DNA of 64,000 nt from Nitrospirota bacterium (GTDB lineage: Bacteria; Nitrospirota; UBA9217). The translations under genes and the position numbers were made by a program. Location: assembly GCA_963754875.1 (NCBI GenBank), contig CAVWHO010000019.1, forward strand, positions 1-64,000. The letters run 5' to 3'. The notes beneath the pieces are model-generated. The model saw only the letters and a list, made by a program, of their open reading frames with translations, made no database searches and was not told where the DNA came from. Shown one piece after another: positions 1 to 11,939 of this stretch; the first letter of the stretch is position 1, and each line of letters starts with the position of its first letter.

Positions 1-1207
1 AGTGTCTCCTAATTAACTGGTGTTATGCCATGATTTGTGATAGAGTGTCGCTCATGGCACGACACGCTTTAACAATAAACCTTGGTGAATCCGATCGGCA
101 AGAACTGGAGCGATGGGTACGCGCCCATCACACCCCACAACAAGTTGCCCTACGGTGTCGAATTATTTTAGCTGCTGCTAATGGCCAACAAGACAAGGCC
201 ATCGCAAATCAATTGCAAATCAACTACAAAACGGCTGCATTGTGGAGGCAGCGGTTCTGTAATGAAGGTCCCGACTGCCTTTGGGAAGTTGCAGCAGGAC
301 GCGGACGTAAACCAGAGCTATCGGCAACCAAAATTAACAAGATAATCAATGCCACGCTGCAAACACGGCCTGTCGGGGCCACCCATTGGAGTTGTCGTAC
401 AATGGCTGAAAAGCAGGGCGTGAGCAAGGCAACAGTCAATAGGATCTGGCAAAGTCATAATATTCAGCCCCACAGAACCACGGGATTTAAGTTATCACGC
501 GATCCACGGTTTCTGGAGAAGCTTACCGATGTTGTCGGGCTCTATCTCAATCCTCCAGAAAAAGCATTAGTGCTCTGTGTGGATGAGAAAAGCCAGATTC
601 AAGCGTTGGATCGTACACAACCGGGCTTGCCGCTAAAAAAAGGTCGTTGTGGAACGATGACCCATGATTACAAACGGAACGGCACGACGACACTTTTTGC
701 AGCGCTCGAATTGGCGCAAGGTAAAGTAGTCGGGCAATGCTATGCCCGGCATCGTCACCAGGAATTTCTCAAGTTCTTAAAGCGACTGGACACTGAATTT
801 CCGGTCGAAAAGCAGCTGCACATAGTGATGGATAACTATGGCACTCATAAGCATCCCAAAGTCCAGGGATGGTTAGCACGGCATCCGCGTTTTGTATCGC
901 ATTTTGTCCCGACCAGTTCAAGCTGGTTGAACTTGATAGAGCGCTGGTTCGGTGAACTGACGGGAAAACGAATCCGTCGCGGAGTCTTTGTCAGCGTGGA
1001 CGCGCTCAAGACTCGCCATCGAAGAGTATCTGGCTGCTTGGAACAAAGACCCAAAACCGTTTGTATGGACGGCAACCGTTGAATCGATTGTTAATAAACT
1101 TGGACGCTGCAAACAAACATTGGAGAAAATTCAGCCAGGCTGCACATTACCTCGCTCCCGCAAGAAAAAGGCTGATAACACCAGTCGTTTGTGAGACACT
1201 ACACTAG
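1..1207 (+). mobile_element. IS630-family insertion sequence (left end probably truncated by the window edge)
   Basis: Bases 1-26 (agtgtctcctaattaactggtgttat) match the reverse complement of 1175-1200 at 21/26 positions. The right end runs into ...acacTAg, consistent with a TA target. The element encloses a DDE transposase. Confidence 0.93.
54..1194 (+). CDS. IS630-family transposase, with one frameshift near 1011
   Basis: N-terminal HTH (THWSCRTMA) and DDE motifs VDEKSQIQAL, MDNYGTHK, SSWLNLIERWF. The conserved C-terminus AIEEYLAAWNKDPKPFVWT lies in the adjacent frame (ORF 988..1194). Confidence 0.9.
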
Positions 1208-2560: not shown

Positions 2561-2606
2561 ATAGTATTGTATGATCGAATACGCAGATCGTAGGAAGGAG
2601 ATTCAT

Positions 2607-2945
2607 ATGAAAAGGATCGAGGCAATAATCCGTCCGACCAAGGTTCCAGATGTATGCGCCGCATTGGACAAAGCAGGCCGTCCCGGGGTGACGATTTCCA
2701 ACGTTGAGGGACGGGGAAGTGAAGAGGGGTGGGTAAATCAGGTCCGGGGTGTTTCTTATGACGTGCGCTTGCTTCCGAAAAAACGGGTTGAAGTGATCGT
2801 TAACGACGAAGATGCTGACAAGATCGTCGCAGCCATACGTGACGCCTCGTTGACCGGAGCGGTGGGAGACGGCAAAATATTCGTACATGATATGGCAAAT
2901 GTCATTCGGATACGGACCAACGAAAGCGGTGTGGCAGCACTGTAA
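2607..2945 (+). CDS. P-II family nitrogen regulatory protein (divergent)
   Basis: MKRIEAIIRP...TGAVGDGKIFV...RIRTNE. RBS aaggag lies upstream of the ATG at 2607. Confidence 0.9.
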   Translation: MKRIEAIIRPTKVPDVCAALDKAGRPGVTISNVEGRGSEEGWVNQVRGVSYDVRLLPKKRVEVIVNDEDADKIVAAIRDASLTGAVGDGKIFVHDMANVIRIRTNESGVAAL

Positions 2946-2952
2946 AATATTC

Positions 2953-3070
2953 TTCACGGCAGCAGATAATGGTATTCCCGCGAAGGGGAACCAGCGTCTT
3001 ATCATGATAATGATGAATCCTGGATTCCCGACAGCGGCATTCGGGAATGACGTATCTGCTGCCACGTGAA
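2953..3070. repeat. Composite palindromic (REP-doublet-like) element
   Basis: Outer inverted repeat ttcacg-gcagcagata / tatctgctgccacgtgaa encloses two ATTCCC...GGGAA(T) hairpin units. Confidence 0.6.
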
Positions 3071-3082
3071 CGGAGAGTTGCC

Positions 3083-3765
<683 letters not shown>

Positions 3766-6269: not shown

Positions 6270-6795
6270 TCAACATAAAGTTGCAATTTTAACTGAGTGT
6301 TGCAACACTTCAACCACACGACTTTCCGTCGCGTCCGTTTCTATGAAGTAATCATCACCGGGCAGCGCGAAGAACACTTTATGCGCGCCGGCTGAGAGCC
6401 TGACTCTTTTCTCAAGAGTATACTTTATTCCTTCTCCTGCCTCGGGATCGCGGCTCGTTTTCCCTGTATCGTCATAGCAGGGAATCGTCTCCTTTCGGCT
6501 GTCCACCTTCCACAGAACAGCTTGGCCGTCTATGTTGAGCAGGAAGGGCTAGACGGGCCTTCCGTGCAGGGATCCCTTGGATGCAAGGATATAATATCTT
6601 CAAGGGTTGTCTTAATGGATGACTTGATTATCAGATATCCGAAGCCCGTTGGAACTGTTCCTTCTGCGGACACCTCAGTGAAAACATCCGTTCTCGCGCT
6701 TTGACTCAGCCTCATTATTTCTTTTGTCGCTGTCAAGCAGCCTACAAAGTGATTACGATTGCGATTAATATCAACAATTTTGAACGTCTATTCAT
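6270..6795 (-). pseudogene. Fragmented putative lipoprotein gene
   Basis: The ATG overlaps the cbiM-like stop (ATGA). Signal peptide MNRRSKLLILIAIVIT...VGC. Coding-like pieces continue in several frames (ORFs 6530..6736 and 6270..6506). Confidence 0.5.
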
Positions 6796-7505
6796 CGTGT
6801 CTCCTTATGAAGACCATGAGCCAGAAGGTCAGGCCTTACTCGCGAAATAAACTGTATTACCGCGCCGGTAATGGCACCCTCAATGATCCAACCGATGCTG
6901 CCGAGCGAGAGCACAATCACCGCGAAGGTCCGAAGAGATGAACTCTCCGGTTCGTCGTGATGTTCCTGGGTTTGCTCGGTCACGCTGTCCTCATGTTCAT
7001 GATGGTGTGCAAACAACTCAGCGTCTACCTGTGAGACGCCGACGATACCTATCAGGAGCAGTGACGCGATAAAGAGCGATAACACCGTGGACAATGCAGC
7101 GCTCCAGAATACAGGCAATCTTTTTCTGAACAGATAAAACAGGGTGTGGCCCAGAAAGGCCTCAGCGCCAAGGAGCAGCGTATTGAGGCCGACGACGGTA
7201 ATGCCGCCGTGACCGACGAAGGCGAGCATGAGATTGACGATGAACGCTGCGATGAATCCGAGGGACGGCCCGAGCAGTATGCCGGCAGCGACCGACATAT
7301 TGAGGTGATAAGCGATAGGCAAAATTTCCAGGCTCATGGCAACGAGCATTACGGCAGCAATTGCCCCCAACAAGGGGACCTTTTTTTTCATGTCCGCTTT
7401 CCTCAAGCGGAACATGCTCAGAGCGAGGAATACCGACATAAGCAGAAATCCCGAAACCCAAAGCCAGACAGGAAGAACGCCGTCAGGAATATGAATATGC
7501 GTCAT
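6792..7505 (-). CDS. CbiM/NikM-like ECF substrate-binding (S) component
   Basis: HIPDG near the N-terminus, GHGGITVVGLN, IEGAITG, and a His-rich loop HHHEHED...EHHDE. Confidence 0.85.
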   Translation of the reverse strand: MTHIHIPDGVLPVWLWVSGFLLMSVFLALSMFRLRKADMKKKVPLLGAIAAVMLVAMSLEILPIAYHLNMSVAAGILLGPSLGFIAAFIVNLMLAFVGHGGITVVGLNTLLLGAEAFLGHTLFYLFRKRLPVFWSAALSTVLSLFIASLLLIGIVGVSQVDAELFAHHHEHEDSVTEQTQEHHDEPESSSLRTFAVIVLSLGSIGWIIEGAITGAVIQFISRVRPDLLAHGLHKETR

Positions 7506-7526: not shown

Positions 7527-8411
7527 TTAAATCGTATGTTGTAAATCTCCGGAGATAAGTTTGGCGACAACCCAGCCTATCGCGTAGAGTGCGCCCAGGA
7601 GGACAACGTCAGTCGGGCCGACCGGTAAATCCCATTGATAAGCGATCCAGAATCCGAAAAAAGCTGTCGCGCCGCCGATCAAAGAGGCCAGCACCGTGAA
7701 CTGGCGCATGTTTCGCGCATATTGATGCGCAGTCAGCGCGGGAATCAGCAGAAATCCGAATGCGATGAGCGGACCCACGCTGAGCACTGCCATCGAGACG
7801 GTGAGCCCGATCAGGACATAGAGCAACACGTCCCAGAAGAGGACGTTCTTGCGAAGGATCGTTGCCGTGTCGCGGTCGAATGAAACAAGGAGCAACTCCT
7901 TGTGGAAGAGTCCTAATGCTGCCAGGACGAGCGTAAGCGTCGCCGCAGTCAGCAGAAGATCGAAATTGGAGATGGTGATGACCTCTCCCTTCAGCATATC
8001 GAGCCAGCCGATTTCGCCGTAAGGATTCTTTGATAATACAAGGATGCTGAGCGCGGCGGCCACAACGTAGGCGGTGCCGAGCCGGCCTTCAGGTTGTCCG
8101 CGCCCGCGCCGTTCCAGGAATGCCAGGACCAGAATCGCGATCAACGAGAAGGTTATCGAGCCGGCAAAGGCGAGCGCGTGCGCGCTGTGGGGGCCGTACT
8201 CGGTCAGTTTGAACCCGAGCCACAGAGGGAGCGAGAGAGCGATAGCAACGCCGGTCGAGGAAATCTGCGGCAAGGCCACGCCCATGAACACCAGACGGCG
8301 CATCACGAGAAACACCCCGACGAGCGGGCAAGCGAAGCCGACGAGGACGCTGGTGTAAAGCGAATTACGGAGAAGAAAATCAAAAGAAAGAATCTGGTGA
8401 AGCGTTTCCAT
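7527..8411 (-). CDS. Zn/Mn-type ABC transporter permease (ZnuB-like)
   Basis: VGVFLVMRRLVFMGVAL, LLVSFDRDTA, WDLPVGPT. True start is METLHQ at 8411. Confidence 0.9.
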   Translation of the reverse strand: METLHQILSFDFLLRNSLYTSVLVGFACPLVGVFLVMRRLVFMGVALPQISSTGVAIALSLPLWLGFKLTEYGPHSAHALAFAGSITFSLIAILVLAFLERRGRGQPEGRLGTAYVVAAALSILVLSKNPYGEIGWLDMLKGEVITISNFDLLLTAATLTLVLAALGLFHKELLLVSFDRDTATILRKNVLFWDVLLYVLIGLTVSMAVLSVGPLIAFGFLLIPALTAHQYARNMRQFTVLASLIGGATAFFGFWIAYQWDLPVGPTDVVLLGALYAIGWVVAKLISGDLQHTI

Positions 8412-8412
8412 G

Positions 8413-9126
8413 TTAACCCATCCCCATTTCAAATATTTCCGCCATGCTCTCGACGGTGAGCAGTTTGTCAGCCTCCCCGAGAAAAACCTTGCCCTCGTGA
8501 AGCCAGAGGACTTTTTCAGCGTAGTGACGGACGGCCGAAAAGTCGTGCGTAACGAGCAGGACGGTGATGTTCCTTTCCTTGCGGATCCGCGAAATAAACT
8601 CCAGCACAACAGCCGTTGCCTCGCGGTCCACCCCCGCCGTGGGTTCGTCCAGCACCAGGACGTCGGGGCGCGTGGCCAGGGCGCGGGCGATGAGCACCCG
8701 TTGCTTCTGGCCGCCGGACAGTTCGGCAAAGCGTTTCTGGGAAAAATCTTCAGCACCCATAGCATGCAGGCATTCGCGCGTGAAACCGCGCTCATCGGCG
8801 GAGATGCGGCGCCCCGGGCGTATGCGGCCATAAACGCCCATCAGTGCAACTTCGAACCCCGTGAGCAGATAAACCGGGTCGAACTGATTGGATTGGGGAA
8901 CATAGCCGAACATGAGCGGTCCGCCTGTTGATGCAGTATCGATGCGGCCCGCTACCGGCGGAAGCAATCCAAGTATTGTTTTGAGCAGTGTCGATTTCCC
9001 CGAACCGTTGGCGCCGAGAATGGCGGTAAAACTGCCGCGGGCAATAGAGAACGAAATCCCAGGCAGCACAGCCTGGCCGTTGTAGCCTATACTGAGGTTT
9101 TCGAGTGTGATCAGTGATTCATTCAT
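8413..9126 (-). CDS. Zn/Mn-type ABC transporter ATPase (ZnuC-like)
   Basis: GANGSGKST, LSGGQKQR, LDEPTAGVD, YVPQ. Confidence 0.93.
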   Translation of the reverse strand: MNESLITLENLSIGYNGQAVLPGISFSIARGSFTAILGANGSGKSTLLKTILGLLPPVAGRIDTASTGGPLMFGYVPQSNQFDPVYLLTGFEVALMGVYGRIRPGRRISADERGFTRECLHAMGAEDFSQKRFAELSGGQKQRVLIARALATRPDVLVLDEPTAGVDREATAVVLEFISRIRKERNITVLLVTHDFSAVRHYAEKVLWLHEGKVFLGEADKLLTVESMAEIFEMGMG

Positions 9127-9181: not shown

Positions 9182-10117
9182 TTATTGCCGTGCCTGCACG
9201 GCAGTTACCATCGTGTGAACGATGTAGTCCATCATCTTAATATACGTCTCCGTATTAGGCACGCCTCCGGGCATGATCGGCACAGTTATCATGGTTGCAC
9301 CGGTCTGTTCGGCGATGACTTCCGGCACCTTTTCCGGGAACTGCGGCTCGCGTACGACGAGAGGGACATGCGCGGCCTTCATTGAGGCTATCAGTTCCTC
9401 AATGTGGCGCGGGGTGGGATCGATGCCCGGCCTTAGTTCCACTGTTCCGAAGAAGTCCATTCCGAAGCGCCTTGCAAAATAGTTCCACTCTTCGTGGTAG
9501 GCTATGAACTTCACGCCCCGGAGCGGTTTGGCTTCCTTCTCCCATTCGTCGATCTTGGCGTTGAGCCTGGCGAGATAGGCGTCGCGGTTGCGCGTGAATT
9601 CCGCCTGATGCTCCGGAGCGAACCCTGCCAGCGCCTTGTAGATATTCTCGATTGCCGTCTTTGCTAATACCGGATCGAGCATGTAGTGCGGATTTCCGTA
9701 GGGATGAACGTCGCCAGCGTAGTGTTCAGTTGATTTCGGCACATCGAGCGGTACGACGCCCTGTGAGCAGTCCACATAGCCGGAGTGGCCCACTTGAATG
9801 CGCGGGTTTTTGCTTGCCTCCAACAGGGCCGGCAGGAAGGCGTGTTCCAGATCGAACCCCGCCGCGATCATCAGGTCTGCCCGGTTCATTATCGGCACAA
9901 AGCTCGGTTTCATCGGGACCCCGTGTGTGTCTTCGACGCCCGTCGCCAGGCTGCGGACCTCTACGCTCTCCCCTCCCACAGCGCGCGCAAAATCGGCAAG
10001 GTCGGTTAGCGTGGTAACGACCCGTATTTTGGCAGCATGAGCGGGCGTGGCCCATCCGTACAACGCGATGGTAAACGCCATGATCGATAGTAAATTGAAT
10101 ATTTTGGATTTCATCAT
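9182..10117 (-). CDS. Zn/Mn-type ABC substrate-binding protein (ZnuA/TroA-like)
   Basis: IRVVTT, EDTHG, GDVHPYGNPHYMLDP, YHEEW. Signal peptide present. Confidence 0.92.
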   Translation of the reverse strand: MMKSKIFNLLSIMAFTIALYGWATPAHAAKIRVVTTLTDLADFARAVGGESVEVRSLATGVEDTHGVPMKPSFVPIMNRADLMIAAGFDLEHAFLPALLEASKNPRIQVGHSGYVDCSQGVVPLDVPKSTEHYAGDVHPYGNPHYMLDPVLAKTAIENIYKALAGFAPEHQAEFTRNRDAYLARLNAKIDEWEKEAKPLRGVKFIAYHEEWNYFARRFGMDFFGTVELRPGIDPTPRHIEELIASMKAAHVPLVVREPQFPEKVPEVIAEQTGATMITVPIMPGGVPNTETYIKMMDYIVHTMVTAVQARQ

Positions 10118-10136: not shown

Positions 10137-11465
10137 TTAGCGCTGCTGCCAGCCATGCGAGTGTGAACCGATGATCCACGCCCATTGCAGATAAACAGCA
10201 TCATCAGGGCGCAGGCCCGTCGAGACATTGTTGTCGGTGTGCGTGTATTGAAGGCGCAGCTGGTTCCAGTGGCTCGTGGCCCAGGTTATGTTTGCGGATT
10301 CCGCGGAGGTTTTAGCCTGTTTGTTTGCCAGGTTCTCCAGCCGTTCATATTGAACTCCGCCTGACCATTGCCGATGCCACCTGTAAATGAGATACGAGTA
10401 TAGTCCATGAGAGCTGACAGATTGCTGGGATACAGGTCCGCCTGCAGGACCCACGTCGTAACGATTGTCACTGTAGAGCACTTCCGTGCCCCAGGTGACG
10501 GCCTCGAACTGATTATCGCGAAGAGGTTTCCAGCTCAGCACCATATCCACTCCTGCAAGGCGCCTCTCCCGTTCGGTAAACGTATTCCCATCGAATAGAG
10601 GAAATGGGTTGCTGCCGTTAGCATTAAGCGCAGGGTCCCACTGCGCAACTGTCCTCGGATTCCACAGGCCTGAAATACCTGGTTCGAGCGATACATTGGG
10701 TGTCAGGTCGAAATACGTTGACAAACGGCCCCAATAGTTCAAGCCCTGTTCATTGCGGTTATCTCCGACGAAGTTCGGGGGATTGTCGCCGCCGAACTGA
10801 TCGCCCGCGCCGAGCGTCAAGCTGATATAGTGCTCGACCGGAACGAGCCAATTTACCTGCAGTCCGTCCGTTCTGGACTCACCACCGATGTATTGCGCGA
10901 GCACGAGCGGACGGTTCACAAAGGGCAGCTCATGATCGTGGATGTAGCCCAGGCGGCCGAACTCTCCGAAGAACCGGCCCGCCTTCACCTCCAGGTTCCC
11001 CGGCAGCGACGTCGTCTGGAGCGCGGCCTCTTCGATCCCCCAGCTTTCTTCACCGGTAACCGGATCGGCTGATCCGTTGACCACTATATAACCCTTTGTG
11101 AACGGATCAATTGACGCTGCCGCATTTAGTTCCACCGAACGTTGAAATACATCAATCCCGCCGGGCCGGTCGCTGCCCGTTTCCGCCTGCCCCCTGCTGC
11201 GATAGGAGAAGATTGTCTCACCTACAAGCCCGATAGCCGGGTTGAACTCGCTCGGCAGGGACTTCTTCTGCGCATCAACCACCTGATCGACAGTGTCTTT
11301 CAGTTCGTTGATGGTTTTTTGCTGTTCATCAATTGTTTGTTGCTGTTTTTTCAGCGTATCTTCAATCGTCCCATGGTTTTGGTCAGCGTCAGCGGCTACG
11401 GCCGATCCCGCAAGCAGAACGAGCGCGAGCATCCATATGGCGTAAAAAGAAATTATTTTTTTCAT
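10137..11465 (-). CDS. Outer-membrane porin/receptor-like protein linked to the metal ABC operon
   Basis: Signal peptide, coiled-coil N-terminus, FNPAIG, HDHELPF, beta-strands, C-terminal IGSHSHGW. Confidence 0.75.
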   Translation of the reverse strand: MKKIISFYAIWMLALVLLAGSAVAADADQNHGTIEDTLKKQQQTIDEQQKTINELKDTVDQVVDAQKKSLPSEFNPAIGLVGETIFSYRSRGQAETGSDRPGGIDVFQRSVELNAAASIDPFTKGYIVVNGSADPVTGEESWGIEEAALQTTSLPGNLEVKAGRFFGEFGRLGYIHDHELPFVNRPLVLAQYIGGESRTDGLQVNWLVPVEHYISLTLGAGDQFGGDNPPNFVGDNRNEQGLNYWGRLSTYFDLTPNVSLEPGISGLWNPRTVAQWDPALNANGSNPFPLFDGNTFTERERRLAGVDMVLSWKPLRDNQFEAVTWGTEVLYSDNRYDVGPAGGPVSQQSVSSHGLYSYLIYRWHRQWSGGVQYERLENLANKQAKTSAESANITWATSHWNQLRLQYTHTDNNVSTGLRPDDAVYLQWAWIIGSHSHGWQQR

Positions 11466-11616
11466 TATTCCTCCCTACAGAAAACAGCAATATACGATTG
11501 CATGCTTTAAGCATACCCGAAAAGCGCGCTTCTTCAACAGAAAGAGGACAATATCGAGCTTTTCTGTCATGCGTTTCTGTGCTTTTATAGAAGTTTTAGT
11601 TGATCAAAAAGAGAGG

Positions 11617-11886
11617 TTATGCCGGAGGGCCGCGAGTGCTGAGAGAAACGTCAAAGAGATTTTCGGTAAAAGCAGGAGCGGAAATAACAACGGTAGTTTC
11701 CGTTAAACAGGGGGTTGTGTCGAAAACAGCTATTGACTGGCTGGTTGCAGATTGATGATTGACTGCTATACAGATGGGACAGTCGTGGTCGTCCGCGGTA
11801 TTTTCGTGGTGATGTGAAACGGCCACAAACGTGGAAAGAAGGACGACGAGTATAAGAAAAAATGTAAAGCGTTTGTAACGGCCCAT
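11617..11886 (-). CDS. DUF2946-like short secreted leader protein (His-rich, CxxC, RGPP)
   Basis: MGRYKRF, hydrophobic helix, SHHHE, HDCPIC, C-terminal STRGPPA. RBS agagga. Confidence 0.75.
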   Translation of the reverse strand: MGRYKRFTFFLILVVLLSTFVAVSHHHENTADDHDCPICIAVNHQSATSQSIAVFDTTPCLTETTVVISAPAFTENLFDVSLSTRGPPA

Positions 11887-11910
11887 GGATCCTCTTTCTA
11901 ACATAAACAC

Positions 11911-11939
11911 AGAATAGCCTGTACTGATCAAATTGTCAA
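11911..11939 (-). promoter_or_regulatory. Sigma-70 promoter of the leader/porin/ABC operon
   Basis: Minus strand reads TTGACA-N17-TATTCT, ~25 nt before the leader ATG. Confidence 0.65.

Follow-up and report, generated by a model that had tools for sequence, protein, structure and literature searches.

A putative metal-sensing ribosome-arrest leader, most likely for zinc, at the head of a porin–ZnuABC operon in Nitrospirota

The stretch of DNA analysed here (the window) comprises 64,000 nucleotides from a Nitrospirota bacterium and carries, entirely on its minus strand, a porin-type operon together with a small leader ORF, P0001. The features of this region, in the direction of transcription, are listed below with the evidence for each.

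11911..11939 (-): sigma-70-type promoter-like site, TTGACA-17-TATTCT; 10/12 matches in a consensus scan
11887..11904 (-): putative, optional 6-codon N-terminal extension of the leader from an in-frame ATG at the predicted +1
11617..11886 (-): leader ORF (P0001), 89 aa; ORF reading and homologue conservation
11818..11868 (-): predicted hydrophobic export/anchor helix, F7-V23, after a basic N-terminus; sequence and AlphaFold2
11803..11817 (-): SHHHE histidine cluster (H25-H27), 57-59 residues before R85; invariance of H25 and H27
11770..11787 (-): HDCPIC with CxxC (C36, C39), 45 residues lying between C39 and R85; homologue spacing
11623..11634 (-): RGPP arrest motif codons (R85-P88), one codon 5′ of the stop; ORF reading
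11557..11679 (-): C>G stretch, candidate Rho-loading region; skew +0.33/+0.33
11466..11616 (-): spacer, 151 nt, from sequence; its second pyrimidine tract lies in a predicted hairpin of its own
11442..11478 (-): porin RBS AGGGAGGA and AUG, held by the opening codons of the porin in the predicted fold; P=0.89-0.98
10137..11465 (-): outer-membrane porin, 442 aa, with an N-terminal coiled coil and an invariant HxH (H176, H178); AlphaFold2 and Foldseek
9182..10117 (-): ZnuA-family binding protein; PF01297 E=1.2e-54, best PDB matches zinc-uptake binding proteins
8413..9126 (-): ABC ATPase (ZnuC/AztA-like); Pfam above cut-off
7527..8411 (-): ABC-3 permease (ZnuB-like); PF00950 E=1.6e-42
6792..7505 (-): CbiM-like membrane protein; PF01891 E=1.5e-37, under all NCBIfam CbiM cut-offs
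6270..6795 (-): remnant of a frameshifted gene, similar to the gene that ends related operons; three-frame reading and by-eye comparison

The promoter TTGACA-N17-TATTCT of the initial annotation is present at 11939-11911. The scan returned two promoter-like sites against 1.3 ± 1.1 in shuffled sequences, which is by itself not above chance; across the family, a -35 hexamer (TTGACA in nearly all) lies 5′ of the leader in 56 of the 62 loci with enough flank. This conserved promoter-like site directly 5′ of the leader and the 151-nt spacer behind it fit the first gene of an operon. The leader itself reads at 11886-11617 as had been described, an 89-aa ORF with an export helix, SHHHE/HDCPIC and a terminal RGPPA, in the layout MGRYKR-hydrophobic-SHHHE..HDCPIC..RGPPA-stop. 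A basic start followed by 17 hydrophobic residues supplies the N-terminal export or transmembrane segment typical of DUF2946/CruR proteins, and AlphaFold2 models a helix over residues 2-30 (pLDDT 83-93 for residues 1-20), with low confidence and disorder past residue 39. Initiation at the ATG at 11904 would yield a 95-aa leaderless form; an in-frame ATG at this place, +6..8 of the -10 box, recurs in 20 of 56 loci, in some of them with no second ATG, which makes a leaderless start possible.

The operon proposed downstream, porin-ZnuABC-CbiM, is borne out by a porin fold and by matches to ZnuA, ATPase, ABC-3 permease and CbiM families above the Pfam cut-offs. The 442-aa product, for which no Pfam or NCBIfam family scored above cut-off, is called a porin because its AlphaFold2 model (pLDDT 68.6) matches porins, best of all OprP (Foldseek, 2o4v, E=8.6e-13). 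The binding protein, the sole ZnuA-family match in the genome, has ligand positions His65, His144 and His208, and its fourth position has no acidic residue in the alignment with Lbp. The CbiM-like protein has an atypical N-terminus, MTHIHIPDG, and a His-rich loop; CbiQ and CbiO do not adjoin it. The remnant 3′ of this gene, at 6795-6270 (-), resembles intact ORFs of 202-218 aa in loci L002 and L013, and is either an assembly error or a pseudogene. Elsewhere in the window, on the plus strand, lie what we take from their motifs to be an IS630-like transposase ORF with a frameshifted end (30-1194) and two P-II (GlnB/K)-like genes (2571-3765).

The leader is a real, conserved gene rather than a chance ORF. 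A protein search found 54 leader proteins, including the query, at 57-100% identity, and the RGPP and CPIC motifs singled out in the initial annotation proved conserved, in that H25, H27, C36, C39, R85 and P87 are invariant among them. From 93 profile matches, nine that were partial or lacked the C-terminus and 18 duplicates were dropped to give 66 loci, eight of which had no typed downstream gene, leaving 58 typed loci. The tails in the 66 loci are RAPP (44), RGPP (20) or RPPP (2), and the CxxC-to-arrest-Arg spacing is 45 residues in 55 loci, 44 or 46 in eight, and unreadable through frameshifts in three. Between the His/Cys and RxPP motifs the linker varies in sequence and is constant in length. 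The named relatives are Nitrospirota MAGs in 13 of 14 loci, the other being a Geobacter. A broader profile search gave 282 representatives at E≤0.001; among the 150 of these that were listed, 137 end in R[AGSP]PP, and of the 137 all have at least two His 54-66 residues before the Arg and 136 have CxxC 43-47 residues before it. The profile itself contains the motifs, such that these matches show the reach of the family and are not independent support.

The assignment to a DUF2946-type family fared less simply. Whilst 46 of the 54 homologues match DUF2946 at E≤1 (best 1.6e-5) and PF11162 is annotated on one of them, P0024, P0001 itself scores 14.5 bits (E=0.062), short of the 23.7-bit gathering cut-off, and no NCBIfam family for the leader was found. 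Because of this shortfall we describe the leader as working like CruR and do not file it in PF11162.

Linkage to the porin is tight. In the 58 typed loci the next gene encodes a porin in 47, a TonB-dependent receptor in nine, and ZnuA and a beta-lactamase-like protein in one each; the leader-linked porins fall into two subtypes, approximately 30% identical. In loci with longer flanks, ZnuA and/or permease genes come after the porin, and ExbB/ExbD/TonB-like genes after the receptor. A less circular test than these counts, which start from the leader profile, is to start from the porin. A porin profile found 67 loci in 64 of the phylum's 401 genomes, and a profile-detected leader adjoins 36 of the 67 (coordinates read by hand). 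Twenty of the 31 remaining loci were fetched, and in 19 of these distant loci an RxPP leader (R[AGSP]PP) lies 62-200 nt 5′ of the porin; the one fetched locus with no such leader upstream of the porin is L098. All 19 distant leaders have a Cys 45-48 and a His 59-66 residues before the Arg, most also have a His at 38-44 residues, and just two keep CxxC; the counterparts in the window leader are C36/C39, H25 and H44. On this sequence comparison the constant core is His-Cys-His rather than CxxC, since every distant leader keeps Cys and His and 17 of 19 have no CxxC.

Several loci are unusual. L019 (G173:C1:816353-818231) has two leader copies on the same strand, approximately 1.6 kb apart, in a genome with four matches. 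In L001 (7001-8482), L062 and L083 unrelated genes follow the leader, that of L001 being a class A beta-lactamase-like ORF below cut-off, which suggests that the cargo behind the leader can be swapped. Loci L002-L006, L008 and L012 form a subtype with spacers of 180-380 nt and a conserved core found in porin-linked and TonB-receptor-linked loci alike; where a receptor follows, what looks like a porin start seems to have decayed. This subtype gave no Rfam match and a weak consensus structure.

How the leader might act on the genes behind it depends on the RNA around its stop codon. Pairing had been proposed between pyrimidine tracts of the spacer (cctctct, 11616-11610; tcctcttt, 11548-11541) and a porin RBS given as agaggga. 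The letters at 11476-11469 are in fact AGGGAGGA, to which the first tract can pair over 7 bp with one G-U, and the predicted folds of the window speak against either tract doing so (P≤0.10 for the first, P≤0.04 for the second). When the region was folded with and without a ribosome footprint, the RBS was held by the porin's first codons either way and its accessibility hardly altered, the opening cost moving from 7.7 to 7.2 kcal, a background-like drop of 0.5 kcal. A three-way switch working through the second tract was also considered and, given its low pairing probability with the RBS, found unsupported. The whole 221-nt region is no more stable than shuffled sequence (z=0.47), and at -11.5 kcal/mol the window's duplex between stop region and RBS is ordinary, 31% of background pairs being as strong.

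Many relatives present a different picture. With the pairing segment defined as the codons around the stop plus the next 15 nt, and gene pairs of the window's genome as background, mean stop-region/RBS pairing is -13.8 kcal/mol in the 58 loci and -17.1 in the 19 distant ones against -9.7 in 537 background pairs. In 21 of 58 loci the probability of long-range pairing is above 0.3 (3 of 60 in the background), and a footprint eases RBS opening by at least 1 kcal in 43 of the 58 and makes it harder in two (36 and 18 of 90 in the background). A 12-bp helix that ties the RBS and AUG to the last codon and stop is 86.5% paired over 28 loci, compared with 43-56% when slid; its counterpart in the window is degenerate. 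These family figures and their p-values overstate the case, because the loci share ancestry and Pro codons are rich in C. Covariation in the 12-bp helix does not go beyond shuffles (80 and 150 of 500), and RNAalifold found no RBS-masking consensus helix from the stop region in 28 short-spacer or 15 long-spacer loci. Footprints for stalling and for termination lead to the same RBS accessibility.

In the window, a different feature stands out. The C>G stretch covers the last 63 nt of the leader and the first 60 nt of the spacer, the cctctct tract included, and its skew compares with a genome background of -0.12/-0.05; it is reached by 1% (coding) and 4% (spacer) of 423 background pairs, the coding part owing something to Pro, Ser and Thr codons. 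Just 13 of the 58 loci reach the window's spacer skew. We found no intrinsic terminator-like site in the spacer, and Rfam matched nothing there or in the spacers of the four loci tested. A rho gene is present (G000:C7:119952-121194), under its family cut-off and split over two frames, likely by an assembly frameshift; single frameshifts similar to this one occur in the leaders of L007, L010 and L013. The sequence thus suggests Rho attenuation in the window, with RBS masking favoured in many relatives. Either output would make a stall switch the operon on, which suits an importer.

Taken together, these features led us to a reading to which we give a probability of roughly 0.55: the 89-aa ORF would be a metal-sensing ribosome-arrest leader, most likely for zinc, through which scarcity of the metal causes a stall and the stall turns on porin-ZnuABC. 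The CruR/CutF-like architecture put forward in the initial annotation stands, with conserved RGPP/RAPP, CxxC, the 45-residue spacing, the first position and the long spacer, and the parts of the reading differ in strength. That the leader is a regulatory arrest leader is very probable on this analysis, and that it senses a metal is probable; zinc as that metal is, overall, a little better than an even bet. A ribosome-jamming motif and a His/Cys cluster at a fixed distance from it make a built-in import switch likely. The anatomy, the conservation of motifs and spacing and the close linkage to the porin are established here, and the stalling logic is taken from relatives.

Mechanistically, a ribosome translating the leader would stall at RGPP when the metal, most likely zinc, is scarce, leaving the operon on. 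When zinc is available, H25/H27, C36/C39 and H44 would bind it, and the resulting folding would pull the chain free. Release of the stall would uncover the C-rich stretch around the stop codon, which in the window would more likely load Rho, as in CruR, and turn the operon off; in many relatives the same stretch may also pair with the RBS and AUG of the next gene.

The proposal that the metal is other than copper holds up, in that the cargo and the pattern of His residues point away from copper and most likely to zinc. Inferred from cargo and by elimination, zinc is our best guess, marginally favoured, because the genome's sole ZnuA has three His ligands and zinc-protein relatives, no Zur is recognised and nickel has systems elsewhere. 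The downstream genes, a porin, ZnuA/C/B and a CbiM-like gene, are not the copper genes expected behind DUF2946/CruR. Neither do they form a recognisable Zur-regulated znuABC operon, as neither a Zur box nor a zur gene was recognised in this 90% complete genome. Of its three Fur-family proteins, one scores best as Fur and two as PerR, all of them under cut-off and with Zur far lower. A Zur may have been missed, given the 90% completeness and the lack of any Fur-family protein above a curated cut-off. For the 6-3-6 core there are at least four mismatches at all 63 leader promoters; the best Zur-box match at the window promoter has five mismatches in 12, and no Zur-, Fur- or NikR-like box lies within 150 nt 5′ of the window promoter. 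Consensus motifs were used for Fur and NikR, and the Zur core agrees with a published table. One of two genome matches at one mismatch, a near-palindromic Zur-like site at G000:C2:34731, lies 5′ of a nitroreductase-like gene and may be chance. A DtxR-family regulator is also present in the genome. Manganese is less likely because the ZnuA ligands are three His.

Nickel and cobalt stay open as sensed metals because of the CbiM-like gene in the operon. The same arrest switch might respond to Ni or Co, or to several divalent metals, and serve their uptake, and CbiM-like genes follow in L002, L005 and L010 as well as in the window. Cleavage of the N-terminal helix would moreover leave an X-X-His N-terminus, which is a Ni/Cu-binding motif, and His-only CutF-like proteins are linked to HupE/UreJ Ni/Co genes (PMC9973294). 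However, L003 and L013 have no CbiM-like gene behind the permease, and in the window that gene stands without CbiQ/O. Elsewhere in the genome NikR adjoins a distinct NikM-type system, and a third CbiM comes with a CbiQ-like gene. The best structural relatives of ZnuA are zinc proteins, and we consider this reading unlikely. Rfam detected no riboswitch in the four CbiM/ZnuA loci of this genome. In L002 (478-664), a cobalamin riboswitch stands before a canonical CbiM cluster that itself lies 5′ of the leader operon.

Somewhat less likely again is an ordinary copper-sensing CruR in which the His residues are incidental. The CxxC stands at exactly the spacing of CruR, where CxxC binds copper, the DUF2946 matches among the homologues point the same way, and TonB receptors follow the leader in nine of 58 relatives, as in CruR. 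Set against this are a ZnuA-type importer in place of the copper genes listed for CruR and the 17 of 19 distant porin-linked leaders that have no CxxC and keep His and one Cys.

Where the metal would be met is a separate question. The His cluster directly follows the hydrophobic helix and would face the periplasm if the chain were threaded N-in, C-out. Some 60 residues from the arrest site would be about enough to reach across tunnel and translocon. Regulation by CruR, whose CxxC spacing is identical, survives loss of the export signal (PMC9426467), whereas CutF requires its own (bioRxiv 10.1101/2025.02.05.636593), which makes the 'periplasmic' part of the initial proposal a coin toss, with sensing in the periplasm and at the tunnel exit about evenly matched. 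The export helix also invites the idea that the stalling leader reads export or envelope state, by SecM/ApdP-like translocon pulling or disulfide formation, rather than metal occupancy. ApdA/ApdP follow this plan of export helix and RGPP, disulfides and EF-P figure in the CutF model (bioRxiv 2025.02.05.636593) and the first cargo gene encodes an exported protein; yet His and Cys stay at fixed distances from the Arg across distant families and the cargo is metal import, not sec/yidC, and we judge this idea improbable. Least probable is that the leader undergoes no regulated stalling and is either a secreted small metal-binding protein or a spacer for translational coupling: a ribosome terminating at the stop would likewise unfold the stop-region helix, but C-terminal RxPP recurs in 137 of the 150 listed representatives although proteomes avoid the motif (PMC12992588), the linker between motifs is constant in length and not in sequence, and the model is disordered past residue 39.

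A metal-sensing arrest leader, most likely for zinc, is thus the reading we carry forward, and it admits a wider and more tentative form. In many Nitrospirota, a His/Cys arrest leader may replace Zur, with a nascent His-Cys-His at the translocon exit reading zinc and gating porin-ZnuABC. The leader would then be the first arrest peptide to sense zinc; distant branches would have cut CxxC down to a single Cys, and Rho attenuation and RBS masking would be interchangeable outputs. No riboswitch is known for Zn or Cu, according to the CruR paper (PMC9426467). Arrest leaders fill this gap for copper and, if our reading is true, a zinc version would show how zinc uptake is controlled in bacteria with no recognisable Zur. 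Natural leader variants with and without CxxC offer a direct way to ask what sets the metal choice of a nascent chain, and the uncharacterized OprP-fold porin with its invariant HxH is likely to be a zinc channel.

The genome also holds an internal contrast, a second, Cys-rich leader type of 94 aa, encoded in the window at 6238-5954 (-) behind a promoter at 6273-6245, with a paralogue at G000:C10:288096-288380. It ends in FQDERPPKA/V, carries H..H, D[IV]CH and CxxxCxC with the first Cys 49 residues before the Arg, and follows a TTGACA-17-TAAAAT site with its ATG 6 nt later (leaderless). A TlpA/AhpC-TSA gene comes after both copies, followed in the window by a Cys-rich beta-barrel gene (5151-4096). 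Relatedness between the two leader types was undetectable by hhalign (probability 0.3%). The second leader is possibly a copper or redox version.

Sensing of a metal other than copper, of which the initial annotation was not aware of any demonstration, had already been proposed in 2023, when Ni/Co sensing was suggested for His-only CutF-like proteins (PMC9973294); its demonstration is another matter, and a literature search with sparse coverage of subscription papers turned up no demonstration of a zinc-sensing arrest leader. The pairing of leader and porin may already stand in the supplementary neighbour tables of PMC12992588 or PMC9973294. Ribosome arrest at RGPP and RAPP occurs in several contexts, and it was shown for seven Streptomyces RAPP/RGPP proteins, with metal sites predicted in two (PMC12992588). 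Our leader resembles SLIV_16130 and SLIV_18480 of Fujiwara et al. 2025 in having RGPP near the C-terminus of a small exported protein followed by metal genes; metal sensing by those peptides is a prediction, and the word 'zinc' is absent from the main text (PMC12992588). Caulobacter CC2720 is likewise a DUF2946-type gene placed first in a zinc-related operon, but it heads the Zur-activated czrCBA-zntA, an efflux operon under transcriptional control by Zur (PMC4176598).

CutF of Rhodobacter capsulatus, in which Cu prolongs arrest and opens the next RBS (PMC9973294; bioRxiv 10.1101/2025.02.05.636593), is also a small exported uORF with metal ligands and a C-terminal PP. As in the CutF-like proteins of Ozturk 2023, P0001 is shorter than 150 aa, has PP within its 15 C-terminal residues and has a same-strand neighbour within 1000 nt. 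Unmasking of the next RBS fits many relatives of the window leader, whereas the window itself yielded no structure that masks the RBS and opens under a footprint. CutF differs further in having CxxxC, stalling when Cu is bound and inducing a detoxifying oxidase, and the sign of the response is likely opposite here because the cargo is import.

The closest precedent is CruR (Bp2923; DUF2946/PF11162) of Bordetella pertussis, in which Cu relieves arrest and Rho terminates (PMC9426467); its arrest has been demonstrated, with two prolines in the P and A sites (PMC12992588). CruR has 45 residues from CXXC to RAPP, five more blunting the copper response, and a C>G skew is described in its rut region (PMC9426467). 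The window leader is shorter (89 versus 145 aa), has an invariant His cluster and RGPP in place of RAPP, falls below the Pfam cut-off, belongs to a Nitrospirota host and precedes a plugless porin and ZnuABC rather than a Cu TonB receptor, with Rho as a candidate only. Both come first in an uptake operon, with an export signal and CxxC 45 residues before a C-terminal RxPP, and both are followed by a long spacer (151 versus 162 nt) with a C>G region and then an outer-membrane transporter. The logic predicted for the window leader is also that of CruR, in which a stall means on and metal means off.
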